Source: a virus. Taken from it: a stretch of 64,000 nucleotides of DNA. Both the position numbers and the translations under genes were made by a program. The stretch lies in the IMG/VR virus record IMGVR_UViG_3300031519_008107, positions 29,105 through 93,104 of that record; one strand, written 5' to 3'. Shown piece after piece: positions 12,162-52,759 of this stretch (position 1 is its first letter; every line of letters starts with the position of its first letter). The notes under the pieces are model-generated. The model did not search any database. It was not told where the DNA came from and was given only the letters and a program-made list of their open reading frames with translations.

Positions 12162-12180
12162 CTTTGTTCTGAGGTTTTGA

Positions 12181-13794: not shown

Positions 13795-13795
13795 A

Positions 13796-17118: not shown

Positions 17119-17119
17119 A

Positions 17120-20269: not shown

Positions 20270-21294
20270 TCACATATTTCCGCAGTTCGTCTTACAACAC
20301 ACATAATATGTGCGAACAGCAATACTTTTTCGACTATGTATTAGGTTATAGACAGCCATCAAACAAAAAAGCTGACAAAGGGACTATAGTACATAAAGCT
20401 TTAGAAATATTAGCCTTTATCAAGTTCACTGAGCAAAAGGGTGAATCAAGTTTCATTGATGATATTATAGGTGAAGTGAATGTTGGTAACTATAATGTAG
20501 ATAAAATTATTAAACAGGTATACACTTATTATACAGACAACTTTGATCATCACGAGTGGACTGAGAAAGATTTTAAGGATTGCTATAAATGGACTTATAA
20601 AGCAATTAATTACGCTGACGGTATGTTTGATCCAAGAAATCGTAATATCTTATATCCTGAACAGCGTTTCGACATAACTATAGATAAACCTTGGGCAAAA
20701 TATGATTATGGTGATTTAAAAGGCCAATTAGCAATGAAGGGTACTATAGATTTAATAACCAGACCTAGTGAAGATACTTTAGAAATTATTGACTGGAAAA
20801 CAGGACGCAGACTAGATTGGGCTACTGGACAAGAAAAAACACAAGAGAAGTTAGAAACAGATCCTCAACTTATGATTTATTTCTATGCTGCTAAAAAACT
20901 ATATCCCGAAATTAAAAACTGTATAGTAACTATATTTTTTATTAATGATGGTGGACCTTTTAGTGTGAGTTTTAATGATAGCGACGTACATGCAACAGAA
21001 GATCTAATTAGAGAAAAATTCTCACATATTAAAAAGTGCAAGCTGCCTAAACTCAGTAAAAGCTGGAAATGCACAAAACTGTGTATGTATGGCAAAACAA
21101 CGTTTGAAAACACTCGAATACCGGCAATATCTGAATATAGAGATCGTCAGTGCTGTAATGTTGGAGAGACTATGACTATGTGTGAACAGGTTAAACATGA
21201 CATTCAGCTGAAAGGCATAAAAGAAGTGGTTGACGAATACACTGTTCCCGGTTATAATGTAGGACATTACCAAGCACCCGGAAGTACGGAATGA
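20263..21294 (+). CDS. Cas4/AddB-like PD-(D/E)xK exonuclease with putative Fe-S cysteines; probable ATT start
   Basis: SSS....MC, GTIVH.ALE, GTIDL, IIDWKTG, QL..Y, C..LC. Frame is open upstream of ATG 20308 to ATT 20263, which has an AAGGA SD. Confidence 0.8.
   Translation: MIITYFRSSSYNTHNMCEQQYFFDYVLGYRQPSNKKADKGTIVHKALEILAFIKFTEQKGESSFIDDIIGEVNVGNYNVDKIIKQVYTYYTDNFDHHEWTEKDFKDCYKWTYKAINYADGMFDPRNRNILYPEQRFDITIDKPWAKYDYGDLKGQLAMKGTIDLITRPSEDTLEIIDWKTGRRLDWATGQEKTQEKLETDPQLMIYFYAAKKLYPEIKNCIVTIFFINDGGPFSVSFNDSDVHATEDLIREKFSHIKKCKLPKLSKSWKCTKLCMYGKTTFENTRIPAISEYRDRQCCNVGETMTMCEQVKHDIQLKGIKEVVDEYTVPGYNVGHYQAPGSTE
21230..21258 (+). promoter_or_regulatory. sigma70-type promoter inside the nuclease CDS, upstream of dnaE-N
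   Basis: TTGACG-17 nt-TATAAT, 33 nt before the ATG at 21291. Confidence 0.7.
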
Positions 21295-32955: not shown

Positions 32956-35900
32956 TTAATCTACATAATTACTCGGATCATCTATATAACCTTGTGGTGT
33001 TGGATTCCAACAGGTACCTCTACATGCTTTTCTGATAGGAAAACCTCCACCAACACCATCAGCAAGTGAATTGCTACCACCCACATTAGGAGGGAATTTT
33101 CCGTCAAAAGTATCACGAGAACATACTCTACCAGAACCTACATCTCTATCACAGTCTTGGAAGGCTTGCGATCCGACAGGACATAAAACAGTATTCCAAT
33201 CACAACCCGCCTGAGTGCTTATACCATTCTCATCACAGTAACCTCTAGCAAGACAGTTTTTGAAGTTTCTAACCATGCTGTCTGGCTGAAAAAACAATCC
33301 CTCCCAATCCCAAGTTACAACTACGGATCCTCCGTCACCACTAAAAGCTAATGTAATAGGAGTTGTTTCACCGTTTTTTGGGCAGGGCAGCTCTATGGGA
33401 GGGCTAGTAAAACTAGAAGTACAGCCACAACTGTTTAACCACTGTCTTTCCAGTGCATAATAGTCCGGCCACCACTCTTCTGCCGGGGTTCCAAAAGGAT
33501 TGTCACCATCACCATAGGGTGAAGGTGGATTAAGAACAAATACGTCAGCTTGGTTGATGTTGGCATCATTACTGGGGTATACTTCATCAATAAGAGTTTC
33601 AGGGAAAGGGAATTCATCTAGATCTCTACCTGCAGTCATTCCAACATGAGCGTTATGACATTGAACCGAACAGGTTGCAGTAAGCTCAAAGTCACCCCCA
33701 TATCCAGTAGATTTCTTACAGCCTCCTTCAATCACTACTAGGATTCCATTCCCACCCTCGTCGGTACTTCCCTCGCAACATCCACCTGCCGCACCTATTT
33801 CGATAGTAAACGTAGGGCAAAGATCGCTTTTAGGAGCAGCACAACATGAATGCTTTCCTATCAGGGGCCCAATCTTGAATAGTGGTTCGTACAGGAAAAA
33901 TCCTGCTATAGAATTTGGATCTATACTACCCGGACCTCCATCTAACGGAAACATTGCATTATTGGATTCATACCACTTGGGTCCAGTTATAGTATTAAGA
34001 TTACAACCCATATCGGGCTTGGTTGCTGATACGTTTACAATGGCTGTTAGAGCAGTGTCATATGGATCAGCAAAACCTTGATTCATAAGATCTATTCCGA
34101 AGTTGTCATACACTATGCCTAGTTTTGTAAAACTAGTTTGCCCAACAGAATTTGAAAACATAGTACATCTACAATTTTCACAACAATAGTATGGATCATC
34201 ATCACTACATATATCGGTTTGTCTCAAGGTCCATCCAACAGGTAGGTCTTGATATGGCATCCCCATGCCTTGAGGTGTGCAAAACGGGCCGGGACTATAT
34301 TTATCATAATCACTAGGGATATCCCTAGCAGTTGGAAGATACTCACCAGTCTCAAGATCTACTCTCCACCCTAAAGTGTTTACGCTATCTGTTCTTACAA
34401 AATTTCTTTCTCCTTGTAGAATACCACCATAACAAGGATTAACACCACCCTGAAAAACACCGTCAGGTACAATATCTTTCATCTTTGTGCTAATTAATAA
34501 ACCGTTTTTACCTAAAACTCTTGGTAAACCATCATCTAATCTCGTATTCGATAGCTGTCCCCCATTTTCCTGCGTGCTCTCATAACGATAACAAGTATCT
34601 GAAGGCCCATGCTCCAGAGTAATCGTACCTTGCGGAACCTTAGAATCTTTAGGACTAAGTCCTGTAGGTCTGATTTTATTAATATGTACATTATTTAAGA
34701 AAAGATTAGCCGAAGGTGCTATAGTTGCAGCCTCCCCTCGACGAAGTTGCACAGCAGGTCTACATCTCCGTTGTAATCTCTCTTGTTCTGTTAAATCTGG
34801 TGGGTCAACAATCACCTCCATATCCCCCTCAACAGTAACTAATAATTGAGCATAACCTGCAGGGGCTTTATAGTAACCTGTACAAGCATCATAATAAGGA
34901 TAATTAAACGGATAACTGTTGTTTATTCTATCATCTGGTAAGAAGTTTTGAAAACTACTACCTCCTTGTCCCTTATAAGTTTGATTAGCTGTAGGGTCTG
35001 TGCCAAAAGGATGTGTTTGATCCTCGCTGAACAATTTGGGCAGAATAATCGCTTCACCATCATAAGTACCCTCTACATCCTCTGCATTCACGTTAATACT
35101 ACTATCAAACGGGTCCTCCGTTACATCTCTAAACACCGTATCATTTTGTCTATATGTAACATAAAAGGTGAGACTTTCTTTAGGTAAGATTTGGGTAGTG
35201 CTTCCTTCTCCATCTACAGTATATTCGACTACACCGGGGCTTGAGGGTGATAATACTTTACTCACTACCCGAGCATTTGTTATATCTTGATCCTCATCCT
35301 CTATCTCACCCTCCACAGTAAATTTAGCACTCCAGTTTTTGAGAATTTGTTCAGCCTTATTGGTTATTGTTACAAAAAAAGATATTACAGGATTATCATA
35401 AGGATCCAATGGAATGGGGCTTGTCGTTGCAAATACAATACTGACTCTAACCTCACCTTGAGGGATTTCTTCAAAAAGTTTAGGAATATACAATTTGTCG
35501 TCCCTTAAAACTTTTTTATAAGCCCTTGTATCGTAAGGCCAATCTCTCATCATAGGATTAAATGGACTTTCTGGCACAGCTCCATCGTGTCTATAAAAAG
35601 TTCTATTATTGGTCTTATGATAAATTCCGTACAAGTTAGTAAGAGGGTTGTCTGCTCCTGTTCGTGTAATATAATCAGGTCTGTGTGCAGGTCTAGCTAT
35701 ATACCAAATATCACCAGCTGTTCCTCCAAGACCAGCCTCTATTATCCACTCAGGAAAGAACCTATCAACTTTGATTCCATTCATATATGCAAAATTATCT
35801 ATACTACATTGTTGATGCATTCTAACATTTGGTATTACGCGAGCGCTGTTAAAAAGCCTATCACAAAAGTCAAAGTCCCAACCGCCATAATCAGGCAGCA

Positions 35901-38508
35901 AGCACTCTCTCATATATTGTTCTGTCATGTCTCCGTAAGGAGAGTCACTAGCGTCAAAAAAGCCTATAATACTACCATAAAAGTTTTTTAAAAGTTCAAT
36001 CTGTGAGTCAGTATATTTCTTATAAAAAGGAGTGACATCATGATCTATGATTCTGACACCTCCTGATTGAGTAGGATCCATTACTGGCGTATATCTAGGA
36101 ATATCCAATGGGCCACTTACAGGTCTAGTACTATCTTTATAGTTGTTTGTTTCAGGTCTAGCGAATGCTATTACAATTATTTTTGAATCTGTCCAAAGAG
36201 GACGACTAGAACGCAAAACACAATCCAACCTTACTTGACTGTCGCTCACTCTAATGAAACCATCGCCACCTCTAATGCCAAGTATATCAGTAAAGAATAT
36301 GTTATCGTAGTATGGTATCGTGATAGTGTTAATTGGTTTACCGGTGAGGTCGCCTCTTCCCGGCTCGTCAGGATTGCCGTGTAAATACAGATAAAAATTA
36401 TTTGGACCCCAGTGAAACAGACTTTCATCTTCTGGAGTTGCTGGGTTATCTTCCTGATAAACTCTAAATATAATAAATCCCGGAACTGCCACACCTTGAC
36501 TGTGATACGACTCTAAAGAGTTAGGGTAGTTCCAAGGGGTATATGGGATTGCTTCTCCCACAGTAGCGTTGTCAGGAACAAAAGGACCATGAATAGGCAT
36601 ACCGAAATAACACATACTAATATCTTCAATGCAATGTAGGTGATTAAGTGGCTGAATAAAATTCTCTCCTACAGTCAGATGAGATTGAAAACAATTGCCT
36701 AACCCCGCCTGTTTAACTTGAGCAGGATGCAAGGCTCTCCGAACAAAGTCTCCTCTTCCAGATTGAAATCCAGTAGTCATATGAGTAGAACCATTGGTCA
36801 CAGAAAGATCTGTTAAATTTGTAACATCAATGATTTTACCCACCCCTGCTGTAATCTCTAAATTAAAGCTAGCATGACCTGCATTTGGGTTGTCTCCAAA
36901 ATTAGCTATTTCTACTATATATTTCCTATGCTGGTTAGTCTGGTTTTTGAAATCGTTGGTTGGTCCACCGCCGCGAGGATTATAACAATGATGATATCTA
37001 TACGTACCAACACCACCTTCACTACTAAAGAGAGAACTAAAAATAGTGTCACGTTTGCCCCGGCCACCAACCGCATAATTAGGACCTCCAGTACTAACAT
37101 AAGGTCTTTCAGCATCTTCTTGTCTAACAAAACCTTGATCTGCTACTCTTTCATGAACATAATACATATTCATATGAATATCAGTATGACTAGCAATATC
37201 CCAAGTAATAATATTCGATGCTGTAAGAGTAACTCCAGAACTTAAAGATACTCCTCCATGAAGAATACCATCGGTATCTGGTCTTTGCTTCTGATACAAC
37301 AAATGAGTGCCTTTATCTCCCGGATAGTATACAGTGTTTGCGCTTAGTTCGTCGAAAGAAGTATCTTCAATAAAAAAGCGATTACTCAGATACATCCCAT
37401 AAGTACCCGGGAATTTAGCGCTTTGTGTAAAGGGGTCTATATCATCAATAAATTTAACTTTAGCTGATCTACCATCATCAGCTAGTTCTAATGAAGGCAC
37501 TCCTATATTAAATTTAACATCATTATGCCCAGATCTACCACCACCAAACATGTAATATTGTCGAGAATTAGGGTCTGTAATAAACCCTTGCTCATCAAGA
37601 GGGATTCTAATAGTTTGAAAAAAAGGATTATCCGGATCAGCAGGATTTCCAAATGGAGATCTGATTGTATCCCAAGTTCTACGACCAAATTGATTCATCG
37701 CAGCAAAAACAACATGACCTAAAGAAATATTTTCAATTCCTTGAAATGGATGATCTCTATATAAAGACACACCGTTTTCAGAACCATCATCACGAGTTCC
37801 TGTAATAACACTTAATAAGGGTGCATCAAACTTAATATTTATTTCGTCAACAGGCTGATCAATAAACTCTACAGGTACATTATTAATTTTAAGATCAGGA
37901 TGCGTATAAGTATGGTATGATCCTGATGGATTTTCAAGTTCAGCAGTCAAAAATCCTGCTGGGGCAGCATTTAACCCTGCAGTTTCTTCCGACACAATTA
38001 GTCTATCAATTTTTGGAAAAGGTAATTCAGTTAGACTGGATCCGATATCCAAAATTCGAAAATTTTCTGAAGTGATAGATCTTACATTATCATCTGCTGG
38101 GCATCCAAAAGCTTCTGTGGGAGGTTGTATTGCAAAATTGTCAATTAAACCTGATCTAACAGCTCTACTTTTACCTAAAGACTCTACCTGTTCTGGTGCT
38201 ACTCCTGTATATGGGGGAGGTCCTTGAGAACCGTCAATAGTAAAAAATTTATGTAATAAATATCCACAATATTTTTCAATATATTTTAATCCTAAATTAG
38301 CATCATACTCACTAATTGGTTTTTCTCTAGGCATAATAACAGAACCATCTTCTAATACTTGGACTAGATCAATTGGTTCGTACGGAGCTAGTAATCTAGT
38401 AACTAAATCTCTAGCTGTCTTAGAAGTATTGAGATTATCATCATCTCTAATTTTTTTTAATATAACTTGAATTTCCTTGGGCTCTATGCTCCCAAAATTA
38501 ACTCTCAT
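32956..38508 (-). CDS. 1850-aa virion/tail-tip protein with CBM2/Ig-like segment and Cys-rich C-terminus
   Basis: Long ORF downstream of the TMP; Pro/Gly/Asp-rich; about 25 Cys in the last ~430 aa. Confidence 0.7.
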   Translation of the reverse strand: MRVNFGSIEPKEIQVILKKIRDDDNLNTSKTARDLVTRLLAPYEPIDLVQVLEDGSVIMPREKPISEYDANLGLKYIEKYCGYLLHKFFTIDGSQGPPPYTGVAPEQVESLGKSRAVRSGLIDNFAIQPPTEAFGCPADDNVRSITSENFRILDIGSSLTELPFPKIDRLIVSEETAGLNAAPAGFLTAELENPSGSYHTYTHPDLKINNVPVEFIDQPVDEINIKFDAPLLSVITGTRDDGSENGVSLYRDHPFQGIENISLGHVVFAAMNQFGRRTWDTIRSPFGNPADPDNPFFQTIRIPLDEQGFITDPNSRQYYMFGGGRSGHNDVKFNIGVPSLELADDGRSAKVKFIDDIDPFTQSAKFPGTYGMYLSNRFFIEDTSFDELSANTVYYPGDKGTHLLYQKQRPDTDGILHGGVSLSSGVTLTASNIITWDIASHTDIHMNMYYVHERVADQGFVRQEDAERPYVSTGGPNYAVGGRGKRDTIFSSLFSSEGGVGTYRYHHCYNPRGGGPTNDFKNQTNQHRKYIVEIANFGDNPNAGHASFNLEITAGVGKIIDVTNLTDLSVTNGSTHMTTGFQSGRGDFVRRALHPAQVKQAGLGNCFQSHLTVGENFIQPLNHLHCIEDISMCYFGMPIHGPFVPDNATVGEAIPYTPWNYPNSLESYHSQGVAVPGFIIFRVYQEDNPATPEDESLFHWGPNNFYLYLHGNPDEPGRGDLTGKPINTITIPYYDNIFFTDILGIRGGDGFIRVSDSQVRLDCVLRSSRPLWTDSKIIVIAFARPETNNYKDSTRPVSGPLDIPRYTPVMDPTQSGGVRIIDHDVTPFYKKYTDSQIELLKNFYGSIIGFFDASDSPYGDMTEQYMRECLLPDYGGWDFDFCDRLFNSARVIPNVRMHQQCSIDNFAYMNGIKVDRFFPEWIIEAGLGGTAGDIWYIARPAHRPDYITRTGADNPLTNLYGIYHKTNNRTFYRHDGAVPESPFNPMMRDWPYDTRAYKKVLRDDKLYIPKLFEEIPQGEVRVSIVFATTSPIPLDPYDNPVISFFVTITNKAEQILKNWSAKFTVEGEIEDEDQDITNARVVSKVLSPSSPGVVEYTVDGEGSTTQILPKESLTFYVTYRQNDTVFRDVTEDPFDSSINVNAEDVEGTYDGEAIILPKLFSEDQTHPFGTDPTANQTYKGQGGSSFQNFLPDDRINNSYPFNYPYYDACTGYYKAPAGYAQLLVTVEGDMEVIVDPPDLTEQERLQRRCRPAVQLRRGEAATIAPSANLFLNNVHINKIRPTGLSPKDSKVPQGTITLEHGPSDTCYRYESTQENGGQLSNTRLDDGLPRVLGKNGLLISTKMKDIVPDGVFQGGVNPCYGGILQGERNFVRTDSVNTLGWRVDLETGEYLPTARDIPSDYDKYSPGPFCTPQGMGMPYQDLPVGWTLRQTDICSDDDPYYCCENCRCTMFSNSVGQTSFTKLGIVYDNFGIDLMNQGFADPYDTALTAIVNVSATKPDMGCNLNTITGPKWYESNNAMFPLDGGPGSIDPNSIAGFFLYEPLFKIGPLIGKHSCCAAPKSDLCPTFTIEIGAAGGCCEGSTDEGGNGILVVIEGGCKKSTGYGGDFELTATCSVQCHNAHVGMTAGRDLDEFPFPETLIDEVYPSNDANINQADVFVLNPPSPYGDGDNPFGTPAEEWWPDYYALERQWLNSCGCTSSFTSPPIELPCPKNGETTPITLAFSGDGGSVVVTWDWEGLFFQPDSMVRNFKNCLARGYCDENGISTQAGCDWNTVLCPVGSQAFQDCDRDVGSGRVCSRDTFDGKFPPNVGGSNSLADGVGGGFPIRKACRGTCWNPTPQGYIDDPSNYVD

Positions 38509-38540: not shown

Positions 38541-41500
38541 TTAACTTATGACCTCATCACAAGTAGCTACACCAGCATATTTCACTAAATTAGATCCATT
38601 CATACCTATAAAATAAGTTGGAACTTGACTAGCTAAAGGCAATGCGTCAAACAGTAAACCTCCAACACTACTATTGAAACCAACAGCACCCTTTGGAACA
38701 CCAACACTAACAACACACGAATTGCTTTCTCCGATGTCGGCAATAGTTATAGGGGTATCTTGAGGTATGGAATAAGGTATAATGTTAAGATAATCGGTAA
38801 CCACAACCTCATTATCTCTATCATCGGTAAGCTCAAAGTTACCACCAGCATCTACAACTTCTGCAGTAAATGTGCCACCTGTACCAGCTCCACTTATAGT
38901 CCTTGCTGGAATCACAGCACCACCTCCACCACCAGCACTCTTTTGATTAATCACTATATACTTACCATCATCATAATATAAATACGCAAAAGCGCCTTTC
39001 GATACTGTCATTCCCAAATAATCATAGACAATGACAGTAGCATTACGAACATCTTGTCGAATATCCTCTCCATCAGGACCCCAAAGATTGGTGTCTTTGT
39101 AATATGCAACTTTATCATCAGTGTTTCCAGCAGAACCATTAAACAACTCAGCCTCAGCTTGGCTATTAGGAGTTAAATTTTCCTTCATACGAGCTAATAA
39201 AACTTTGCTGTGTGTAGGAGCAACCCATACTCCTCTGTTTCTATCAAATCTTAAATCTATGGGGGCAACAGGCCAAGTCTTAGGGTTAGATAGCCAGTTT
39301 TTCAAAAACTTATCTTTTAATCCAGTATCTCTAAATTTACCCTTCTCGCAATTTTTAGCAGAGTCATTATCATTAGGGATAGGCTTACCGTCAGTATCAT
39401 AACCCCAACCTTGTAAAACTAAAGGGCCTCTGATGGCATTAAATCTAAAGTCTTGTTGCTCTTGTCTATCAAATTCTACTTCAACATTAGCAGTCGGTGT
39501 TACACCATCTTCTTCATATATGTCTTCAACGACAATTGAGGTATCCTTTCTTTTAACAACTTTATCTATCCTAGTAAAATATTGAGGATCTTTATCTACA
39601 GCAATTTTACCAACATTAAACCCAACAGCAGATTCATTAGTTCTATCATCTAATCTATCATCCATAACTTTTTTAGTCATATATGGATTAAGATAATTTG
39701 AGCATATTTGTAAATCAAAAAATGTATCATTTGTATTTCCTTCAGAATCAGTTACTTCTATAGAAGTTATTTTTAAAGGAGGAATAGATGAGTATGGTCT
39801 ATTTCTCATTCCACTAACACAACTACTTAAAGTATTAACAAAGCTCTGTAGATTGCCTTCATCCTTACCTCCAAAACCACCACTAATAGAAACTGGTAAA
39901 AAATGTGCGTCCAAACTAGTCATAGCCATATTCCTATAATATTGTTGATTATAGTCTTGACTGTAAGCATTACTAATCTGTGTTCTTACTACTCTTTTAA
40001 CTATATTACCTTCATCTGAAGCTGTGGGTTTTTTAGTTATACTTAAAGGAGCGTCGTCTACTTTTGTAGAAATCTCGGTAACTTTTAGATCCGTTACAAC
40101 ATCACTGCCCTCATCACTATTTTTATCTGCTTTTCCACGTTGCAATCCGTAATGAGACACAACTGTTTCAGCTCCGCCACCTCTGTTACCATCTTCAGCA
40201 CTATTGTTAAATCTAGCTGTAGGGGTTCCAGCCTTAGTAGATACCCCACCATCTGAAGGACTGCCATCATCCGCCATTCCCGGACTACCATCAGAAGATC
40301 CTCCTTTTTTCTTAGCTACTTTTGCTTTAGGTATTTTAAGGCTGTTTTTAAAACTAATATCACTTTTTTTATCTTGATCACTGGTTATTTTTTTTAATGT
40401 TTGTCTTCTTTCTTTAACTAATGACTGAACAGATTCTCTCACGTATTCTTCTGTTTGACCAAATTTCCTTGTATATGAAGAAAAAGATACATCAGTACTA
40501 GCCCCATTACTACCATAACTGATATTAAGACTATCTATTATGGCTCCAAAGTTACCAAAACTATCGGCTACAACAGCAGAATCACTTGATAGATCAAAAG
40601 TTGGAGTACCAACCATTGAAACACTTGCTTTTTCCTGAAAGACCCTAGAGTTTACACCATCTATAGCAATATTTTGCCCAGCCCGCACCATACCGTTTGT
40701 CCAGCTAATTGGCACAATATTAGGAGCCTGTAAGTTAGAAACAAACTGCCAAGGAGCTAAATCTGTCTCTACGATTTCAGTGCCACCATCAGTATCTGCT
40801 GTAACACTAAAAGGACCATAAACCTGAGTGTTACTTAAAAAAGGTATACACACTTCACATGGAACACAAGACAGAGGATTAAAGTCGCTATACTTGATAG
40901 TTTCCGCACTAGAAATAGCCCCATCTGTTTTTTTATTTTTATCATCATCGACTTCTTCCGCATCAACAGCGTCGGGATTCTTACTATCAATATCTTTGTC
41001 CCCAACAGGCTTCTTCCGGGGGTCTTGATCTTTATCTTTAAGGGTTACTGTGGTACCCGTAAGAAACAGCTCCATATTATGAAACACTTCTGCAGGATTA
41101 AAGTCCTCATTGTTAACAACAATCGCTTCTTGAGTTAAATCAACTTTAGGAATACTGAATCTTACTAAAACAGCATCTCCACCACTTTCATAATCCAATA
41201 TTGACGCATCATCTAATCGAGCAAATATCATTTCAGGATGAAACTGCGCTTTGACAAATATATCATCAAAAGGATCACCTATAACATTAAACGCTACATC
41301 GTCATGGTCTGTCGGTGTTCTCGGATTAACGGCTGTGACTTCTTCTAGTGGAGGTCCAATACAATTGTCAGCTCTCATATTGGGAGCCTCCTGATCTCCG
41401 GGGTGAAACAGAAACTGATCATGATTTAAGTTGGATAGTTCAGGTTTATACTTACCCCACAGATGACCTAGTTGAGCACACTGTACTTTAGCCGGTCCTA

Positions 41501-43718
41501 AATTAACAAAACCTGCTATTGTTCCGTCTGTATTTTGAAATTTATTTAAAGTTCTCCACGGAATACCCATCACTCCAGTTTGACTAGGGCCAGAAGCCCA
41601 ACCTCCATTTGTTGGAGTGTCGCTAGTATCAAAATTATTTTCATCTCCACTAATTCTGTAACCATATATATAACCTTCATTTAAATCTGATACTGGACTG
41701 TTAGGAGGAATTAATTTAGTGCTAGGCACAACAGGAAACTGGTTGTCAACTATAGACTGAGCCAAAGTCGTATTATAACTACTATTAAAACAAACGTCAT
41801 GACTATTAAGATTACTGCTTATGCCAGCATCTCTAAGATGACTTAAGAGCTGTCTATCTAAGAGAACAGCAAACTCTTTACCATAATAATCATCATATAT
41901 TTTTTTAACGTGCATTTGCACTAATTCCAATTGTTTTTTATTTCTTTTAGTAATGCATGGGTAGGCTCCGGGATCTAAGGTCTCACCTTTTTGAAAAGTA
42001 TCCATCAAGCCCATGACAATCTTATCGGACATGTTCTCCCAGCCATCTATAAGAATGATTGCACAAAAATATCCAACACTATTCTTATGATTAGCTATCC
42101 ATTTCGTATAAGTATCATAATTACTAGAAGCTAAAAGTTCTTCTAGAGTAAGTCTTGGCTTCCAAATTGCAAATAAGTCCTCGGCATACAGCTTATATCG
42201 ACCTGCTTGATCGTCAAGTGGCTCACTAGTAAGCTGTAATCCTTGCAATAAAACTTTAGCATTCGGCTTCCAGTCAATATCAAAACCATTTACGTTCTCT
42301 TCAGATCCATATCTTGTGAGATGTATTTTTTGAACAGGTGGGAACCTAACATTGTTTTCGTTGGGAATTTGTATCGTATCTTCTCCAAGAATTTGGAAAA
42401 TACGATGTCTATTAGGTAGCAGGCAGTCATTGGGTTGCAAATCTGGTCCGGGATCATTACCCTGATTATTAATATTTCTATCTAATCTCACCAAGTCTAC
42501 ATTAGAAGTTTGTGTGCCATTATCTCCACCAGTTTCACCCTGATAAACATCTTGAGCCTTAAAACTCAGACCATCTAGATCATTGTCTTTTCCTACGGTA
42601 TCTAAATAAATGTCTGGAGTAGCGTCTACTCTATGTTCTTCATGATCTACAATAGTTATTATATCGTCAGGAGTAACATCGGGAGTAATAGAAATAGCAT
42701 TATTACCAAAACCACTATCCCAGTCATTTAGGAAAGGGCCTGATTGCACATGAGAACGAAAACAGATATTCCCCCTATTGTAATCATGTATCTGTAAAAA
42801 ATATCTATAATTATCACCCATGACCACTTTTCTTGTTGTGACATTGGTGGATTCTTGTCCATAATCAAGTTCTTTAGTAAGATTAAAATTTGCAAAATTG
42901 TCATTGACATAATCTCTTAAAGCAAAAGCTGTAGGGACTTGTTGTCTGTTTATTACGTCTACAACTATATTAAAATCTGAAATTCCAACAGTACCAGCTG
43001 TTAATCTAATATTAAAGTCTGCTGCAATATCATCGCAAACACTTTGAATTAACTCCATGATACTAAGAGAATTAGAATCTATAATGCTATAGAAACCTTT
43101 AACTGTAGAGGTTAATGCACTTTGAAGATTGCTTAAATCAATTCTGATTGTTTGATTAGACAATGGTAGTTTTATTACTTGCGGAGCTGTCACAAACAGA
43201 GCTATGACATTACGAGATGGTATACCATGTTTATCTCTGTAAGAAGCTCCAAAACCAGCAGTAGAAGAACATTTCTCTGTACTGTAGCCACCACAATTAG
43301 AAGCTGTTAAAAATTGACTTGAAGATCCGGGTTCCAAACTTCGTAAAGCACTTAAAATATTTTGCCCAGAATCACAGCTAAGATAAATACCATCTACGCC
43401 ATATTGACGTCCTGTTATAATCTGTATATTTTCTAACGTATCTCTACCATCTGTCAGGGTAACGGAAATAGACCTACCAGAAGCACCTACTTTTATAGAA
43501 TGATTTGTTAATAAGCCAATAAAAAAAACGTTATCTACTGTAATGCTATATATCTTGCCTAATTCCCCAGTATATCCGACAAAACTTGATGGATTCTGAC
43601 CAGCAACTATAGTTTCTACCAACTGAAGATTAACAGATGTATTTGATTTACCTATACCTATACTAAAACTAGCGCTTACAACTTCACATCCTTCAAAAGT
43701 TATTCTAGATAATGCCAT
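38541..43718 (-). CDS. 1725-aa tail hub/baseplate-like protein
   Basis: Position downstream of the TMP; beta-rich N-terminus; LRGPL-like AIRGPLVLQGWGYD motif. Confidence 0.65.
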   Translation of the reverse strand: MALSRITFEGCEVVSASFSIGIGKSNTSVNLQLVETIVAGQNPSSFVGYTGELGKIYSITVDNVFFIGLLTNHSIKVGASGRSISVTLTDGRDTLENIQIITGRQYGVDGIYLSCDSGQNILSALRSLEPGSSSQFLTASNCGGYSTEKCSSTAGFGASYRDKHGIPSRNVIALFVTAPQVIKLPLSNQTIRIDLSNLQSALTSTVKGFYSIIDSNSLSIMELIQSVCDDIAADFNIRLTAGTVGISDFNIVVDVINRQQVPTAFALRDYVNDNFANFNLTKELDYGQESTNVTTRKVVMGDNYRYFLQIHDYNRGNICFRSHVQSGPFLNDWDSGFGNNAISITPDVTPDDIITIVDHEEHRVDATPDIYLDTVGKDNDLDGLSFKAQDVYQGETGGDNGTQTSNVDLVRLDRNINNQGNDPGPDLQPNDCLLPNRHRIFQILGEDTIQIPNENNVRFPPVQKIHLTRYGSEENVNGFDIDWKPNAKVLLQGLQLTSEPLDDQAGRYKLYAEDLFAIWKPRLTLEELLASSNYDTYTKWIANHKNSVGYFCAIILIDGWENMSDKIVMGLMDTFQKGETLDPGAYPCITKRNKKQLELVQMHVKKIYDDYYGKEFAVLLDRQLLSHLRDAGISSNLNSHDVCFNSSYNTTLAQSIVDNQFPVVPSTKLIPPNSPVSDLNEGYIYGYRISGDENNFDTSDTPTNGGWASGPSQTGVMGIPWRTLNKFQNTDGTIAGFVNLGPAKVQCAQLGHLWGKYKPELSNLNHDQFLFHPGDQEAPNMRADNCIGPPLEEVTAVNPRTPTDHDDVAFNVIGDPFDDIFVKAQFHPEMIFARLDDASILDYESGGDAVLVRFSIPKVDLTQEAIVVNNEDFNPAEVFHNMELFLTGTTVTLKDKDQDPRKKPVGDKDIDSKNPDAVDAEEVDDDKNKKTDGAISSAETIKYSDFNPLSCVPCEVCIPFLSNTQVYGPFSVTADTDGGTEIVETDLAPWQFVSNLQAPNIVPISWTNGMVRAGQNIAIDGVNSRVFQEKASVSMVGTPTFDLSSDSAVVADSFGNFGAIIDSLNISYGSNGASTDVSFSSYTRKFGQTEEYVRESVQSLVKERRQTLKKITSDQDKKSDISFKNSLKIPKAKVAKKKGGSSDGSPGMADDGSPSDGGVSTKAGTPTARFNNSAEDGNRGGGAETVVSHYGLQRGKADKNSDEGSDVVTDLKVTEISTKVDDAPLSITKKPTASDEGNIVKRVVRTQISNAYSQDYNQQYYRNMAMTSLDAHFLPVSISGGFGGKDEGNLQSFVNTLSSCVSGMRNRPYSSIPPLKITSIEVTDSEGNTNDTFFDLQICSNYLNPYMTKKVMDDRLDDRTNESAVGFNVGKIAVDKDPQYFTRIDKVVKRKDTSIVVEDIYEEDGVTPTANVEVEFDRQEQQDFRFNAIRGPLVLQGWGYDTDGKPIPNDNDSAKNCEKGKFRDTGLKDKFLKNWLSNPKTWPVAPIDLRFDRNRGVWVAPTHSKVLLARMKENLTPNSQAEAELFNGSAGNTDDKVAYYKDTNLWGPDGEDIRQDVRNATVIVYDYLGMTVSKGAFAYLYYDDGKYIVINQKSAGGGGGAVIPARTISGAGTGGTFTAEVVDAGGNFELTDDRDNEVVVTDYLNIIPYSIPQDTPITIADIGESNSCVVSVGVPKGAVGFNSSVGGLLFDALPLASQVPTYFIGMNGSNLVKYAGVATCDEVIS

Positions 43719-46360: not shown

Positions 46361-49300
46361 CTATGCTATTGGACTCCCGTCGAGGAATGCACCCATTTGA
46401 TCATCTACAGCAGACTCAACTTTAAGCTGAATGCCACCATTCGTTGCCTTATTAATTAACTGACTGACTTGAGAAACACTAGCTGAAACAATTTGTGATT
46501 GCAGGGCTTCATAATTTGGTATGGAAGCAACTACATTTACATTTGTATCTAAACTTAAAGAATCAGGCAAAGACGATGAGTCTATAGTGACTGAGGAAGA
46601 AGCCGCACCACCTCCACCAGCACCACCAGCACCAGCACCACCGCCACCAGTAGGAGCACCGACTGGAGGGTTGGGATTCACGCTCATGTCAACTCCAAGT
46701 AGTTCTCTACCTAGCTGTTCCGTAGTAGCATTAGGATTCATTAAGGGGTTGTCTAATGGTACAGGAGCCATTATTGGTTTTTGTGTTTTTATATCATATG
46801 TACGACCGGGATCTCTAGATACTTTTTCTTGCTCAATAGTTTCATTAGCTGTTAATACTGCTGTTCTAATTGCTGATATTAATTCTTCATTAATAATTCG
46901 AGCAAGTTTAGCCATACTTTCTTCGACCGACTTAACACCCTGCTGTTCCATTCTTTGGAGAGCTTCATTTGCTTGTTGTCTAATGTTAGCTTCATCCATC
47001 GCAAGCTGTTTTCTAGTCTGATACTCTCCATCCTCTTCTCTATTCTGTGACTTCGACAAGTTAGCAGCCTCCGCTGCACTAATAGCCCCAGATTGTTGAC
47101 CTCCATCCAAAACCTCCTTCCTTCTTCTTTGGTATTCTTCTTCTCCTAATGATGCTCTTTGACTTTCTACAAACTGTAAAGCCTGTCCTACTTGCTTTCT
47201 ATCACCCTGTCCTGCTGCAACAGCAGCAAAGTTAGCTAAACTTTTACCTAATTGTTCAGGGTCTGTTAATGCGCTCATATAGCTATTCTGCTGCGCTTCT
47301 AATTGTCTTGTTCTTTCTGCCAAAGAATTCATAGCTGCATCTAATGCTGTAGTATCATTTGCTAAAAATTCTAAAGCCTGTCTGGTAGTATCAGATTGAG
47401 CATTAAGTCTACCCATTGCTTTGCCTGTTTCTTCTAACTCTTTGGCCCTGCTTTCACGTTGATCTGCTGTGTCTGTTGGCATAGCCGTTGCATCTATTTG
47501 TCTTTGTTCAACTTCTTTTCTTTCTGCTGTTAAAGTGTTCATTCGGCTTTCAAAAGCATCAACAGACGTACCTCCTGCATTTGTACGTTTTTTGAAGACC
47601 TCTAATTGTGCATCTGCTGGGGCTCGTCTTTCTGCTACACTTAGTCTGTTGCCTCCAGCTTCTGAAATTCTATTCGTATCATTAGCAAAATTAGCAGCAC
47701 CTTGCAACTGTAACTGAGTAACTCTCTGTAACGCAGCAGACAGTTTGTTTGCTTGAACATTTAATTTTTTCAATGCGTCAAATTTTATTTGAGCAATCTC
47801 TGTAAATAATTTTTGAGCTACTGCAACTTTGTCATTAAACGCTTTCATTGCTTCAGGATCGTCGCTTGTAGCAGCCTGTGTAACAAGAGTGTCCTTAATC
47901 TTCTGAAACTCTGGTCCTAAGTCTTTACCAATATCCTTAAATGCTTTTTCAAATTGCTCTGCTCTAAATTGACCACTAGCTTCTTTAGGCAATTTAGCAG
48001 TTACTTCTTCTTGAGCTCTCTTGAGTTCTAATAATCCCGCAGCAGTTTCTAACTCCGAGCCTCCTCCGCCAGCATTCACAACACTATTTAAACTACTTTT
48101 AAACTCTTCAGAAGTAAATCCTTGTCTATTGCTTAGTCTTTCGCTATCTATGTCTCTCATAGATGTTGTGGCATCAGCTCGTCCTGCAATTGAGCTTAAT
48201 CTTGAATCAGATTCAGCAACAACCTGATTCATATCATTAGTCAATTTTTTAATATTTGAGCTGGTTTTTAAAGCTATATATCCTAATGTTTTTGTAGCTT
48301 GTGCTAACACATCCGCATTAATAGCAGTCATTGCTAACGAAGCCGCTGTCCTGTTCTGTGATGCTACATAATTGTCAAAAGCTTTTTTCATTTGCGGGTC
48401 ATCTTCAAACCCGCCTTTCATCTTCTTCTCAGCCTCTGCACCAGTGAATCCACGATCCGCCAAAAATCCTCTCATCATATCCTGTTCAAAGCTCTTACCA
48501 ATATCTTCTTCAGATCTCGTGTCTCCTCGCTCTCTTGCGTATTGTATAGACGCTGCTCTTAATAGGCTAGTACTGGCATCGTCTAACTTAGCAAATTGTT
48601 TATTAGCTGTGGCTCTATCTCCTTCGAGTAAAGTTCTTACTTTTGCAAGATCAAAATCTTTAAGACCTTCTCTTTGCTCGGCGCTCCCAGCAGCTTGAAT
48701 ATCAGGAAGCCTATTGCCTATAGCTTTAGCTAATTCAGTTACTTTAAGAGCAGCTTGCTTGGAAGCTTCTGCTTGAGCTATTTGAGCTTCTTTATTTCCG
48801 GTAACCCAATTCCATACACTTGCTGTAGCTGCTACAAGACCCGCACCAAGTCCTACAACATTTTTTTTGGCAAATGCATAACTTTTAGATAAAAGAGTAG
48901 TGTTTTTAACTACGTCTTTAGTAGCTTTTTCTGTCCCTTCTTTACCTGCAGCTTTTGTTGCTTTAGTACCTGCTCCAAAAAGAAAACCCGTTATACTTTT
49001 CTTAACACTTCCAAAAGCATCAGTAACAGCTTTACTCATTCTAGGAATTAAAGTTTTTAAACTTTTCTTCGCAGCTTTTTGAGCTTGATCAGTTGCAACT
49101 TGTTCTGCCATACCCAAAGCAGTAGCAGGAGCAGCACCAGCTACACTAAGATCACCAGCAGCTTGAAGGGTATCTGTAGCAGCATCGAACAAACCAAAAC
49201 CAACATCAACAATAGCGTCTAGCCATTTGCCTTCGTATATATTAGCCGCAGCACTAGCAAAGTCTTTAGCTGCTCCAACATATGGTATAGCTCCGGTAGC

Positions 49301-52300
49301 CATTGATGCTGCAATTTCAGCACTTATATTAAGAGCCTGACTCTCAGATTCCATTTGAATAACATCAACAAAATCTCCAGCAATACCTTCACCACCAGCC
49401 CTACCACCACCAGCTAAATATTGTGGTGTTATACCTCCCTTATTTTTATTAATAGCTTTTAATACATTTAAATTATCTTTAGTTGATCTTGCATTTACAA
49501 CAAACTCACCGGGAGTTAACATCGTAGGAACAGTATCAGTGCCTTTTTCTTGAAAGTCAATTAATTGACCCTCACTAGCATAAACAACACTACCTCCTTT
49601 AGACTTCGACCTTGACCTTCCAGCACGGCGTCCGCCTTTGGTGAACATGGCTAAAGTGGCAAGACTAGATATTATCGTTAAGAACGTACTGGCAGCTGAG
49701 GCTCCTTTTGATGCAAAACTATTCGCAGCTGCTGCTGCATCTTCTTGAGCAGTTCCTACACTAACAAGAGCTGTCTTTAATTCATCGAAAGTTTGTAATC
49801 TCTCTTTAATCCCCTGAGCAGCACTAAAATTTTCTTCAGCAAATTTTAAATCTTGTTCTGCTGATAATAATGCCTTTTGGGCTCTAGCTTTTTCTGCTGC
49901 AACTATGCCGTCCAATATACCTTTAGCTCCACCAATAGCAGCTCCACCCACAGCTCCAATTTTTCTTCCTTTTTTACCGCCTATCATTTGTCCAGCCAAG
50001 GATCCAGATTGAAGGCCGCTACCGGCGCCTGCTAAACCTTTAGTTGCTGCTTGAAAAGCAGTAGAAGTTTCGGCAGCAGTGCCTGACAGACCTTCAAAGG
50101 CAGTGCCCATTTCAGATAACTTGCCAGCAAAAAGAGTCAAACCCATACCAGCAGCAGTAGTAACACCACCAAAAGCTGAAAATTTCTCATCCACACTCTC
50201 TCCAAAAGCAAGTATTTTCTTTTTTGTTTTATCAAAAGTTTGTGCTAGTTGAGAGCCAATTTTTTTCTGTTTCTTTGCGTTCTCTTCAGCCGCTTCAGCC
50301 AACGCGTCTAATGCTTCAGCCGCTTCTGCTTCGCCAACAAGACCACCGCCAGCAACGGGAGCTGTTGCAACATTACCACCATTTTCAAAATGCTGCACAC
50401 CACCTACAGGACCACCCTTATTATATCCATTAATCTTTTTAAGATTGCCATACCCAAACGATTGAGCCGATGTCTTATTGACTACAAACTCACCGGGAGT
50501 AAGCATAGCGGGTACAGTATCAGAACCAGAAATACCTCCACCTTTAGCTTTTTTCTCAAATCTACCAGTTAATAACGATGCGTTTTGGCCTCTATAATCT
50601 ACTCCCTTTCTTAATAAATTAAGTAAATCTGGAGCATCAAACATAGGTCTACCGAAACCATCATATTGATTTGCTTTAGAGAAAGAGTCTTTTAAATTAT
50701 CTCCTTGCGATTTAGCCCATTTATCAGTTACTTTTGTTGCTGCATCTGCTAAGAATTTAGATTTTGATTTAGGAGGGCTGTCTGTTTCGTAAGTGTCTCC
50801 ACCTTTTAGTCTAGTGCTAGTTTTGTAAGGCTTTTCTGCTGGAGAAAAATTTACACTTAAACTGTCACCATCTATAGCATTTATTAAATCAACACCATGA
50901 ACAGCACCACCTTGTTTATACTTATTAATTTTAGACAAGTTACCAGCACCAAAAGCTTCTACAGCACTTTTACGAATAACAAATTCACCCGGAGTAAGCA
51001 TTGCTGGTACAGTATCTCCACTGCCACTGCCGGGAACACTACCTCCGCTAGCCATTCCCACAGAAGGACTACCAGACATTTTAGCTGTTAAACTCTTGAC
51101 TTCAGTTGTAAGAGCGACAAGAGCTGCTGTATTAGCACTCATGTTTTGCTTACCAGCTTCTTTACTACCTCCGCCGATTGCGTCTCCCATATTAGCGCCA
51201 ATACCAGAAACAGCACCAGCAGCACCGCCAACACCTTTTAATGCACCACTAAAACCTTTACCAAACTGACTTAAAAACTCAAAACCTTTACTAGCTGTTA
51301 AAGCTACTAATAAAGGAATGATAGGTTTAAAGGCACCTACTACTTTTATTAATGCACTAGCAAATGATAATGCTGTGCCTGTAAGGAATTGAAAAGTCTT
51401 ACTCTCTCCAATATCTCTAATTAATCCTAAAAATTGTTCACGGACTTTTGTTAACTGGACAGCTAATGCTCCCTGTGCTTTTGTTGCAGCATCGGTCAGA
51501 GAACCTGATCCTCGTTGAGCAACGCCTAATGCTTCTTGTGCTGTAGCAAATTCTTGGAGTAAAGGAATAACTTTACCAACCTGACGGAAACCACCCAACT
51601 CTTCAATAATTTTACTGAAGGTTGTAGATCTAGGATCTATACCAGCCAATCCTTCACTCAATCTTTGAATAGCTTTATAAGGACCAATAAAGTTACCCTC
51701 TAAATCTTGTAGTTCAACACCAAGTTCTTTTAAGAAATTGATGGTACTACCTCTTTGAATACGTGTAAAAATAGTTCGCAAACCAGTAGCGATAGTCTCG
51801 GCACTTTCACGAGTCGTAGCTCGAACACTAGTAAATAAAGCAATAAATTCATTAAGAGCATCTTGCCCTTGACTGATACCCCTACTGGATGATGCAAACA
51901 CACCACCAACACGCTGGATGGCAGTAATAATGTCGCTAGATTCTACAGCAAATCTACCAGCCACAGCATTGATACTTCCTAATGCACCCTCTAGATCATG
52001 TGCAGCTAAACCAAACTGCCTAAGAGAAGCAATAGCACCTTCTGTTGTATTTTTAAGATTATCAAATGTTGGAGCTAAATCAGCTTTCGCTAAAGCCTGT
52101 AAGGCTATTTTAGTTTCCGTAGCTGATAAACCAGCCTGAGATAATGTAACGCTAACCTCTGCTAAACTACTAGAACTCACACCAAATGATGTTGCCAGTC
52201 TAGTGATTTCACCAGATAAATCTTTGAGTTGTTTTTTAGTATCTCCTGTAACCTGAGAAATCCTAGTCATTTGTCTATCAAATTCTACAAATTCTCCAGT

Positions 52301-52759
52301 AGCATTCGCAATAGCTCCTGTAAATTGATTGACAATACTAGTAACCACACTAAAAGCGGCAAACCTTTTAACAGCTAACGCCGACTGTTTACCGAAGTCC
52401 TCTATAGCTGTAGTAGCTTTGCCAACGTCCTGTTTAGTTTGTTTAAAACTGGTGTTGCTCTTAGCTGTAACAGAAGCTAACTTGGAGGATGCGTCTGATA
52501 ACTTTCGATAATGTCCTGTTGCGGTTTTAGCCGTTGCTCCTAGTTGAGCTAGAGATGTCTGGGCGGCTATAGCATTTTTCCGAAGAGCAATTAAATTTTT
52601 ATTCAATTGTCCAATACTTTTACCAGCATTTTTAGCAACAGATAACTTGACATCTACACTGACATTACCCAGCTGCTTCTTAATTTGAGAAGCAACTTGT
52701 TTAACGTTTTTAGGGCCTTGCAGATTAATCTGTGCTGTGAGATTAAAAGAATTAGCCAT
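46361..52759 (-). CDS. tail tape measure protein with internal SNase domain and GG repeats
   Basis: TP901-type TMP core (L.QAG.S, AVES.D, ESAETIATGL.TIF.R), Ala-rich helices, hydrophobic segments, 2132 aa. Confidence 0.92.
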   Translation of the reverse strand: MANSFNLTAQINLQGPKNVKQVASQIKKQLGNVSVDVKLSVAKNAGKSIGQLNKNLIALRKNAIAAQTSLAQLGATAKTATGHYRKLSDASSKLASVTAKSNTSFKQTKQDVGKATTAIEDFGKQSALAVKRFAAFSVVTSIVNQFTGAIANATGEFVEFDRQMTRISQVTGDTKKQLKDLSGEITRLATSFGVSSSSLAEVSVTLSQAGLSATETKIALQALAKADLAPTFDNLKNTTEGAIASLRQFGLAAHDLEGALGSINAVAGRFAVESSDIITAIQRVGGVFASSSRGISQGQDALNEFIALFTSVRATTRESAETIATGLRTIFTRIQRGSTINFLKELGVELQDLEGNFIGPYKAIQRLSEGLAGIDPRSTTFSKIIEELGGFRQVGKVIPLLQEFATAQEALGVAQRGSGSLTDAATKAQGALAVQLTKVREQFLGLIRDIGESKTFQFLTGTALSFASALIKVVGAFKPIIPLLVALTASKGFEFLSQFGKGFSGALKGVGGAAGAVSGIGANMGDAIGGGSKEAGKQNMSANTAALVALTTEVKSLTAKMSGSPSVGMASGGSVPGSGSGDTVPAMLTPGEFVIRKSAVEAFGAGNLSKINKYKQGGAVHGVDLINAIDGDSLSVNFSPAEKPYKTSTRLKGGDTYETDSPPKSKSKFLADAATKVTDKWAKSQGDNLKDSFSKANQYDGFGRPMFDAPDLLNLLRKGVDYRGQNASLLTGRFEKKAKGGGISGSDTVPAMLTPGEFVVNKTSAQSFGYGNLKKINGYNKGGPVGGVQHFENGGNVATAPVAGGGLVGEAEAAEALDALAEAAEENAKKQKKIGSQLAQTFDKTKKKILAFGESVDEKFSAFGGVTTAAGMGLTLFAGKLSEMGTAFEGLSGTAAETSTAFQAATKGLAGAGSGLQSGSLAGQMIGGKKGRKIGAVGGAAIGGAKGILDGIVAAEKARAQKALLSAEQDLKFAEENFSAAQGIKERLQTFDELKTALVSVGTAQEDAAAAANSFASKGASAASTFLTIISSLATLAMFTKGGRRAGRSRSKSKGGSVVYASEGQLIDFQEKGTDTVPTMLTPGEFVVNARSTKDNLNVLKAINKNKGGITPQYLAGGGRAGGEGIAGDFVDVIQMESESQALNISAEIAASMATGAIPYVGAAKDFASAAANIYEGKWLDAIVDVGFGLFDAATDTLQAAGDLSVAGAAPATALGMAEQVATDQAQKAAKKSLKTLIPRMSKAVTDAFGSVKKSITGFLFGAGTKATKAAGKEGTEKATKDVVKNTTLLSKSYAFAKKNVVGLGAGLVAATASVWNWVTGNKEAQIAQAEASKQAALKVTELAKAIGNRLPDIQAAGSAEQREGLKDFDLAKVRTLLEGDRATANKQFAKLDDASTSLLRAASIQYARERGDTRSEEDIGKSFEQDMMRGFLADRGFTGAEAEKKMKGGFEDDPQMKKAFDNYVASQNRTAASLAMTAINADVLAQATKTLGYIALKTSSNIKKLTNDMNQVVAESDSRLSSIAGRADATTSMRDIDSERLSNRQGFTSEEFKSSLNSVVNAGGGGSELETAAGLLELKRAQEEVTAKLPKEASGQFRAEQFEKAFKDIGKDLGPEFQKIKDTLVTQAATSDDPEAMKAFNDKVAVAQKLFTEIAQIKFDALKKLNVQANKLSAALQRVTQLQLQGAANFANDTNRISEAGGNRLSVAERRAPADAQLEVFKKRTNAGGTSVDAFESRMNTLTAERKEVEQRQIDATAMPTDTADQRESRAKELEETGKAMGRLNAQSDTTRQALEFLANDTTALDAAMNSLAERTRQLEAQQNSYMSALTDPEQLGKSLANFAAVAAGQGDRKQVGQALQFVESQRASLGEEEYQRRRKEVLDGGQQSGAISAAEAANLSKSQNREEDGEYQTRKQLAMDEANIRQQANEALQRMEQQGVKSVEESMAKLARIINEELISAIRTAVLTANETIEQEKVSRDPGRTYDIKTQKPIMAPVPLDNPLMNPNATTEQLGRELLGVDMSVNPNPPVGAPTGGGGAGAGGAGGGGAASSSVTIDSSSLPDSLSLDTNVNVVASIPNYEALQSQIVSASVSQVSQLINKATNGGIQLKVESAVDDQMGAFLDGSPIA
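49499..51055 (-). repeat. three copies of the GG...DTVP(A/T)MLTPGEFV module in the TMP
   Basis: Copies at about 50978-51016, 50483-50521 and 49499-49537. Confidence 0.85.
50552..50905 (-). other. staphylococcal nuclease (thermonuclease) domain within the TMP
   Basis: IDGDS...RLKGGDTYET...DGFGR matches SNase D19/D21, R35-x4-D40-x2-E43 and D83-x3-R87. Confidence 0.75.

Follow-up and report, generated by a model that had tools for sequence, protein, structure and literature searches.

Phage tape measure proteins (TMPs) are usually regarded as rulers and channel formers, with at most a cell-wall enzyme attached. The locus described here raises the question of whether such a protein can also carry a nuclease domain and, if so, what that nuclease would be for. 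The DNA analysed is a stretch of 64,000 nucleotides, termed the window, which corresponds to positions 29,105 to 93,104 of the IMG/VR virus record IMGVR_UViG_3300031519_008107; all coordinates below are those of the window. An initial annotation had proposed that an insert of ~118 residues in a predicted TMP, here found to comprise 2,132 residues, is a thermonuclease domain of the staphylococcal nuclease (SNase) type, carried as cargo inside the TMP. The results presented here indicate that residues 619-736 of this protein very probably constitute a genuine SNase-superfamily domain, that the domain is a divergent, trimmed member of the superfamily lying below the Pfam threshold, and that it occupies a slot in which related TMPs may hold other modules.

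Sequence relationship of the insert to staphylococcal nuclease

Translation of positions 50552-50905 on the minus strand gave 118 residues with no stop (AVHGVDLINAIDGDSLSV...TRLKGGDTYET...YDGFGRP...LLRKG). This is the translation quoted in the initial annotation, which is corrected here in that the gene lies on the minus strand. The boundaries proposed there, YKQGG and KAKGG, were also recovered, the sequence reading ...KYKQGG at one end and ...KKAKGG at the other. The segment fills the whole space between repeat modules 1 and 2, which contain the first two of the three DTVPxMLTPGEFV motifs found in the TMP (at residues 582, 747 and 1075).

Searches with Pfam and NCBIfam gave no match to the segment. 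When the segment was compared with all PDB sequences using phmmer, 86 matches were obtained, every one of them a staphylococcal nuclease, with a best E value of 0.015. A profile prepared from 17 related TMPs was then compared with the same database, and SNase alone was returned among the best matches, with an E value of 2.6e-8 and an alignment spanning SNase residues 12-132. Sequence identity to SNase was 20-27% across approximately 105 aligned residues. Of the 23 TMP relatives, 11 matched the phage endonuclease family phrog_452 with E values no higher than 0.01, the lowest being 1.7e-12; for the domain of the window itself the match to this family was weak (E 0.13). The Pfam SNase family, PF00565, reached an E value of 0.01 in only two of the 23 relatives and scored 20.7 bits on P0113 and 18.5 bits on P0128, below its cut-off of 21 bits.

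Predicted fold

Two AlphaFold (AF2) models were built on alignments of the relatives, and in both the predicted local distance difference test (pLDDT) values of the core were above 90. Foldseek, by which the initial annotation had anticipated that an SNase fold would be recognized, returned SNase structures as all of its top matches (probability 1.0, E ~5e-5, TM-score 0.37-0.47). Alignment to SNase with VIA-align gave Z scores of 9.4-10.2 and root-mean-square deviations (rmsd) of 3.7-4.2 Å over 103-109 residues. When 48,161 chains were scanned exhaustively, the first 15 places were all taken by SNase, Tudor-SN or extended-Tudor structures, with the extended-Tudor matches at Z 5-7.6, and the next fold scored Z 3.2. 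The top matches in BFVD were viral SNase-like nucleases, including a cyanophage endonuclease (Synechococcus phage S-RIM2). The predicted fold of the segment is thus that of SNase, an oligonucleotide/oligosaccharide-binding (OB)-type barrel packed with helices. Because the relatives' profile gave an E value of 2.6e-8 and the fold comparison a Z of 9.4-10.2, the match of motifs to SNase is far beyond chance; together with the conserved catalytic and Ca2+-binding residues described below, these values bear out the earlier assignment of an SNase-superfamily domain to the TMP.

Conservation of the catalytic residues

The phmmer alignment placed the IDGD sequence of the insert on SNase D19/D21, the RLxxxDTxET sequence on R35/D40/T41/E43 and the DxxGR sequence on D83/R87. 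It had been claimed that every SNase motif residue is matched with the same local spacing, and in the PDB alignment this held for D19/D21, R35, D40-T41, E43, D83 and R87 and failed for Y85, the equivalent of which is a phenylalanine. In addition, Y722 was aligned with SNase Y113.

The aligned relatives are 36-76% identical to the window segment. Nevertheless, D630, D632, R650, D655 and E658 were kept in 36 of 36 homologues. R704 formed an invariant column in alignments of 17 and 23 rows and was kept in all of the approximately 30 homologues that span it, being shifted by about one residue in four of them. The domains are mostly basic, with a median isoelectric point of 9.35 (9.1 for the window domain). 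This pattern of conservation is that predicted for an enzyme under selection and not for a decayed scaffold. The two aspartate Ca2+ ligands, D632 and D655 (SNase D21 and D40), both transition-state arginines, R650 and R704, and the general-base glutamate, E658, are all kept, and T656 aligns with T41, the backbone of which belongs to the Ca2+ site of SNase. The domain thus appears enzymatically competent, and it is considered likely, on these grounds, to be an active nuclease.

Distribution of the domain

An exhaustive phmmer search of the segment against 1.84 billion representative sequences returned 15 clusters. These comprised 11 proteins of 1,129-5,486 residues, the 2,132-residue TMP itself, an N-terminally truncated protein of 1,589 residues (P0008) and two short fragments. 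No relative of 64-207 residues was present in a collection of 5.8 billion proteins. Among the TMPs retrieved, 32 of 126 first-slot segments carry the domain, a fraction that is inflated since the sample was ranked by a query that included the domain. In all 32 cases the domain lies in slot 1, the space between repeat modules 1 and 2, and starts approximately 37-47 residues past the first DTVPxMLTPGEFV motif. A hidden Markov model of the domain, iterated over 359 inter-repeat segments, converged at the same number of 32 holders, and a scan for weak matches added none. From these searches, this SNase-like subfamily appears to occur only inside giant TMPs, directly after the first repeat module.

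The phages that hold the domain are uncultured and apparently marine. A search of viral contigs with the single sequence gave no confirmed relative. Two Ralstonia phages, YO163_3 and YO026_2, seemed to match over the full length, but were found to have only two repeats and no SNase-like insert. The UniProt entry A0A6J5NQ80, a protein of 1,342 residues from an uncultured Caudovirales phage, has been automatically named SNase-like, and databases may therefore already contain unremarked cases.

Exchange of modules within the slot

The initial annotation had suggested that the TMP is built from cassettes and that its homologues might carry alternative cargoes, and this was found to be so: an ADP-ribosyltransferase and other modules are present in the same slot of the relatives. 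Slot 1 holds SNase alone, SNase together with an ADP-ribosyltransferase, an ADP-ribosyltransferase alone, or other modules. The ADP-ribosyltransferase module (PF03496, up to 42 bits, with the STS and ExE motifs kept) was detected in eight segments, of which half also contain SNase and half lack it, the latter lying in slot 1 or slot 2. Such modules are present in P0006 (residues 689-780), P0113 (residues 655-835), P0048 (residues 923-1135), P0081, P0104, P0105 and P0126, and the combination with SNase was seen in P0006, P0007, P0113 and P0126. The canonical arginine of the R-S-E triad was not obvious in the ADP-ribosyltransferase modules at the usual aromatic-R-G position.

Further modules of approximately 150, 220 and 490 residues are shared among relatives, and Pfam gave no family match to the shared modules X, Y and Z. 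An alternative slot-1 module of 105-147 residues was observed in P0063 (residues 629-733), P0044, P0099, P0114 and P0093, where sister TMPs have SNase. It contains a conserved KG..[FY]E ... FPD ... [AL]E[LV]K pattern that resembles the signature of PD-(D/E)xK nucleases, and may represent the replacement of SNase by a non-homologous nuclease. A search of the ESM Atlas with the P0063 module returned uninformative matches only, below 0.9.

When the presence of SNase was mapped onto a tree of the N-terminal TMP core, the distribution was patchy, with at least eight changes on well-supported branches; in this run P0085 and P0129 were scored as lacking SNase although both carry the domain, and the patchiness persists. 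Two pairs of relatives locate the exchange. P0006 and P0084 share 86% identity in residues 1-511 but are unrelated beyond this point; for P0117 and P0119 the identity is 79% in residues 1-548, and again the remainder is unrelated. Both breakpoints fall at the end of repeat module 1. These comparisons support the view that the SNase-like domain is an exchangeable module flanked by conserved repeats.

Other origins of the insert were also considered. An intein or homing endonuclease is ruled out by the in-frame segment, its SNase family, the conserved flanks and the absence of splicing motifs. The GC content of the insert is 34.7%, against 40.4% for the TMP; this gap reflects the Gly/Ala-rich composition of the TMP and is not evidence of recent transfer.

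Organization of the tape measure protein and its genome

The 2,132-residue ORF (open reading frame) is identified by its family matches as a predicted phage tail TMP. It matched PF10145 with 76.9 bits (cut-off 33.2; residues 185-386) and TIGR01760 with 91 bits (cut-off 28.8), and several PHROG TMP families also match it. Its closest cultured relatives are TMPs of the SPbeta YomI type, with approximately 25% identity over the N-terminal 560 residues. The parts of the protein are listed in Table 1.

Table 1. Features of the TMP gene, with positions in the window (all on the minus strand)
Feature	Residues	Position	Strand	Basis
TMP gene (P0001)	2,132 in total	46361..52759	-	ORF; PF10145, TIGR01760 and PHROG TMP families; N-terminal likeness to SPbeta YomI-type TMP
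Conserved N-terminal TMP core, with PF10145 (185-386) and a strongly hydrophobic segment (458-497)	1-560	51080..52759	-	79-86% identity between relatives with unrelated downstream parts
Repeat module 1: Gly-rich lead, DTVPAMLTPGEFV beta-hairpin, two short helices, end KYKQGG	574-618	50906..51040	-	Motif; AF2 strands and helices, pLDDT 65-76
Predicted SNase-like nuclease domain	619-736	50552..50905	-	PDB phmmer, family profile, AF2, Foldseek, VIA-align; phrog_452 in relatives
D630-G-D632, equivalent to SNase D19/D21 (Ca2+ site)	630-632	50864..50872	-	SNase alignment; invariant in 36 homologues
R650-x4-D655-T656-x-E658, equivalent to SNase R35, D40, T41, E43	650-658	50786..50812	-	SNase alignment; R, D and E invariant
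D700-G-F-G-R704, equivalent to SNase D83-K-Y-G-R87	700-704	50648..50662	-	SNase alignment
Repeat module 2, end GYNKGG	739-784	50408..50545	-	Motif; AF2
Slot 2: Gly/Ala-rich, three hydrophobic/glycine-zipper segments (860-878, 934-954, 1022-1040)	785-1066	49562..50407	-	Hydropathy scan
Repeat module 3, end KNKGG	1067-1111	49427..49561	-	Motif
C-terminal part: charged, no Pfam domain, hydrophobic segment (1301-1319)	C-terminal ~1,020	46361..49426	-	Pfam and hydropathy scan

Each repeat module comprises approximately 45 residues, modelled by AlphaFold as a beta-hairpin and two short helices (pLDDT 58-76), with K-x-G-G at the end. In many unrelated, ordinary PHROG TMP families the DTVPxMLTPGEFV module is matched once, close to the C-terminal end, and about 4,600 proteins have DTVPxMLTPGEFV repeats in common. 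As judged from these matches, the module is a widespread TMP element that has been multiplied in this TMP. Further matches to the module were obtained in Synechococcus phage S-SCSM1 and Streptomyces phage VWB, to proteins that carry the annotation lysozyme or endolysin. The junctions of the modules have the form hydrophobic-x-x-Gly-Gly: in the window (49427-51040, minus strand) they read MASGG, YKQGG, KAKGG, YNKGG, FENGG, KSKGG and KNKGG, and in the relatives P0113 and P0006 they include FAEGG, LAEGG and YANGG, among others. Each junction may be a linker or a processing site. Pfam detected no peptidase in the window TMP. In P0126, a TMP of 4,652 residues with both SNase and ADP-ribosyltransferase, residues 3138-3270 gave a weak match to the zincin-type aminopeptidase family PF10023 (20.3 bits, cut-off 25), and this region could be a processing peptidase of the kind found in polyvalent proteins.

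Slot 2, between repeat modules 2 and 3, is kept at the same place in 11 relatives and, from its hydropathy, is probably the membrane-inserting part of the TMP.

The IMG/VR record is an AT-rich sequence of 93,104 base pairs, estimated to be 66% complete, with genes for a class II ribonucleotide reductase, PhoH, RecA, DnaB, a primase and glycosyltransferases. Genes upstream of the TMP on the same strand match minor tail and tail fibre PHROGs, and the immediate neighbours of the TMP gave no Pfam or PHROG family match. The TMP and tail-tip genes are followed closely, on their downstream side, by two giant ORFs of 1,850 and 1,725 residues (32956-38508 and 38541-43718, both on the minus strand), to which Pfam gave no match. 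A replication and nucleotide module at 9963-21294 on the plus strand encodes the class II ribonucleotide reductase, PhoH, RecA, DnaB helicase, a Toprim primase and a PD-(D/E)XK nuclease, a set typical of marine phages.

Proposed function of the domain and alternative explanations

The best explanation of these results, to which a probability of roughly 0.6 is assigned, is that a competent, divergent SNase is carried as an exchangeable TMP module, is delivered at ejection and cuts nucleic acid in a Ca2+-dependent manner. TMPs lie in the tail tube, exit first, and form or line the DNA channel (PMC10770324). Because TMPs fill the tail tube and exit first, the domain would be carried in the virion and exposed ahead of the DNA; we infer its presence in the virion from the identity of the protein as a TMP. 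Approximately three copies per virion would travel with the TMP, and at ejection the domain would become exposed in the host envelope or cytoplasm. Non-specific, Ca2+-dependent cutting could then be directed at host DNA or RNA, or at competing or defence nucleic acids. During assembly, the enzyme would be held inactive by the scarcity of free Ca2+ in the cytoplasm of the producer cell. That the domain acts as a delivered effector is, taken by itself, given a little less than an even chance.

The interpretation offered in the initial annotation is, overall, partly supported. The nuclease identity and the modular exchange are supported because sequence, structure, residue conservation, distribution and slot exchange all provide evidence for them. 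Beyond this, we infer that the domain would be active as a nuclease, would depend on Ca2+, would be packed in the lumen of the tail and would be delivered to the host; its release at the GG boundaries, its site of action and target, self-protection, and the tie of self-protection to the glycosyltransferase genes envisaged in the initial annotation are conjectural.

A number of points weigh against the proposal that a delivered nuclease is at work. PF00565, to which the insert had been expected to belong, gave no match on the segment, on the whole TMP or on the six-frame translation of the genome at its gathering threshold of 21 bits. SNase Y85 is replaced by phenylalanine in the window domain. 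The insert had been described as non-helical, and yet a helix of 31 residues is predicted in the middle of the segment, where it covers the position of helix 1 and strand 4 of SNase. Strand 5 has only three residues in the model, and the C-terminal helix of SNase is absent. Since the modelled core is remodelled in this way (rmsd ~4 Å, TM-score 0.37-0.47), the activity could be altered. No cultured relative of this phage lineage was found. The phage DNA would have to be protected from a non-specific nuclease placed just ahead of it, and no means of such protection was identified. Canonical SNase, which hydrolyses DNA and RNA to 3'-phosphates, requires millimolar Ca2+, which is unavailable in the cytoplasm. 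This need favours a site with high Ca2+, while the NAD+-dependent transferase in the relatives' slot points to the cytoplasm.

The alternative given most weight is a nuclease that is active, though elsewhere than in the newly infected cell. It could contribute to late breakdown of host DNA and nucleotide scavenging, or could clear virion-trapping DNA in Ca2+-rich lysate or seawater, and its fusion to the TMP would be a means of co-expression or latching. The domain is homologous to the stand-alone phrog_452 proteins and to viral SNase-like nucleases such as the cyanophage endonuclease, genes of nucleotide metabolism are present in the phage, a class II ribonucleotide reductase and PhoH among them, and canonical SNase needs Ca2+ at extracellular levels, all of which would suit such a role. 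However, this subfamily was never found as a free protein, and its fixed position in the TMP, beside effector-type modules such as the ADP-ribosyltransferase, favours selection for co-delivery over co-expression. This alternative is considered unlikely.

It is also conceivable, with a distinctly low probability, that the domain stays in the envelope with the TMP channel and degrades later-arriving DNA in the Ca2+-rich periplasm, giving superinfection exclusion. The Ca2+ of seawater or the periplasm suits an SNase-type enzyme, and the position of the domain between the hydrophobic segments at residues 458-497 and 860-1040 could place it at the membrane face. Against this, only about three copies would be available per infection, injected DNA is normally inside a protein conduit, and the NAD+-dependent transferase of the relatives again points to the cytoplasm. 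Nucleases on the host side that act on DNA during injection, beside the TMP, are known (10.1101/2025.11.03.685801) and lend this possibility some support.

Equally improbable is a non-catalytic SNase- or OB-like scaffold, as in Tudor-SN and extended-Tudor proteins. Such a scaffold would bind either the phage DNA at its leading end or a protein of the tail or the host, and within the tail lumen its role would be that of a plug, an adaptor or a spacer. Nuclease-inactive scaffolds of the SNase type are common, the extended-Tudor structures were among the matches in the chain scan, the barrel is remodelled in the model, and the domain misses the Pfam threshold. However, loss of the metal-binding and catalytic residues is generally reported for SNase-like scaffolds of the non-catalytic kind, whereas here all homologues that span these residues keep them, even though identity over the remainder of the domain falls to ~36%. 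Finally, a chance resemblance of motifs in a low-complexity TMP linker with no folded domain, which might have been suspected from the single-sequence E value against PDB and the lack of a Pfam or NCBIfam match, is refuted by the profile match, the confident AF2 core, the unique fold match and the conservation over 36 homologues, and is given almost no weight.

Beyond the delivered SNase module favoured here, a broader reading can be put forward tentatively, and is on balance doubtful: the giant TMPs of this lineage would be recombination-shuffled polyvalent effector carriers, in which the ~45-residue modules are joints, and possibly cleavage sites, between swappable enzymes that are injected ahead of the DNA to act on the nucleic acids and defences of the host or of rivals, the nuclease being silenced by low Ca2+ until ejection. 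The enzymes so carried may be the SNase-type nuclease, the ADP-ribosyltransferase, a possible PD-(D/E)xK nuclease and several modules of unknown kind. A conserved, apparently competent nuclease that keeps to one TMP slot and can be swapped there for an ADP-ribosyltransferase or other modules would add to what is so far the only published example of a cytoplasmic enzyme carried by a TMP, the P23-45 polymerase, and would point to a general strategy whereby long-tailed phages pre-load their tails with effectors. It would also pose the question of how a non-specific nuclease travels directly ahead of the phage's own genome. As standard domain libraries miss SNase-like cargo, TMP effectors are probably under-counted.

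Comparison with known systems

No paper on an SNase or thermonuclease domain fused in a TMP was found in the literature. The nearest characterized enzyme is S. aureus nuclease A (1STN, 1SNC; PF00565), with which the window domain shares the superfamily, the predicted fold class, the equivalents of D19/D21, R35, D40-T41, E43, D83 and R87 at the same local spacing, a tyrosine at Y113 and a basic character. The staphylococcal enzyme differs in being a secreted protein of 149 residues, whereas the window domain has ~105 residues and lies inside a predicted virion protein of 2,132 residues. The window domain also departs from it in that helix 1 runs on through the position of strand 4 in the model, strand 5 is short, the last helix is missing, phenylalanine stands in place of Y85 and the score is below the Pfam cut-off. 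The closest viral sequence family is that of the stand-alone phrog_452 phage endonucleases, for example that of Synechococcus phage S-RIM2. These are free proteins of ~150-200 residues expressed in the infected cell, in contrast to the window subfamily, which was found solely inside TMPs.

TMPs that carry peptidoglycan hydrolases, such as the SPbeta YomI transglycosylase and T5 pb2, resemble the present case, as proposed here, in that the TMP serves as the vehicle of an enzyme whose action would come with ejection or directly after it, and the N-terminal core described here is homologous to that of YomI-type TMPs. In Thermus phage P23-45, gp96 is a TMP-fused virion RNA polymerase (PMC10770324) and provides a precedent for a TMP-borne enzyme acting on infecting DNA inside the host. 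Unlike the peptidoglycan hydrolases and gp96, the predicted cargo of the window TMP is a nuclease; it occupies an internal slot bracketed by conserved repeats instead of a terminal position, and exchange of this cargo is seen among the relatives.

Polyvalent proteins (Iyer et al. 2017, PMC5512222) combine several conflict-type enzyme modules, nucleases and ADP-ribosyltransferases among them, in one large polypeptide that is thought to enter the host with the DNA, and they show modular reshuffling. That paper mentions neither TMPs nor SNase domains. The window TMP differs from polyvalent proteins in having one recognizable enzyme module, and a processing metallopeptidase was not detected in it by Pfam. 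Effectors of contractile injection systems (Sle1, PMC13277306) are also TMP-related and modular. In relation to these systems, enzyme-bearing TMPs are already known, and what is new here is the SNase cargo together with the clear modular architecture in which it is found.

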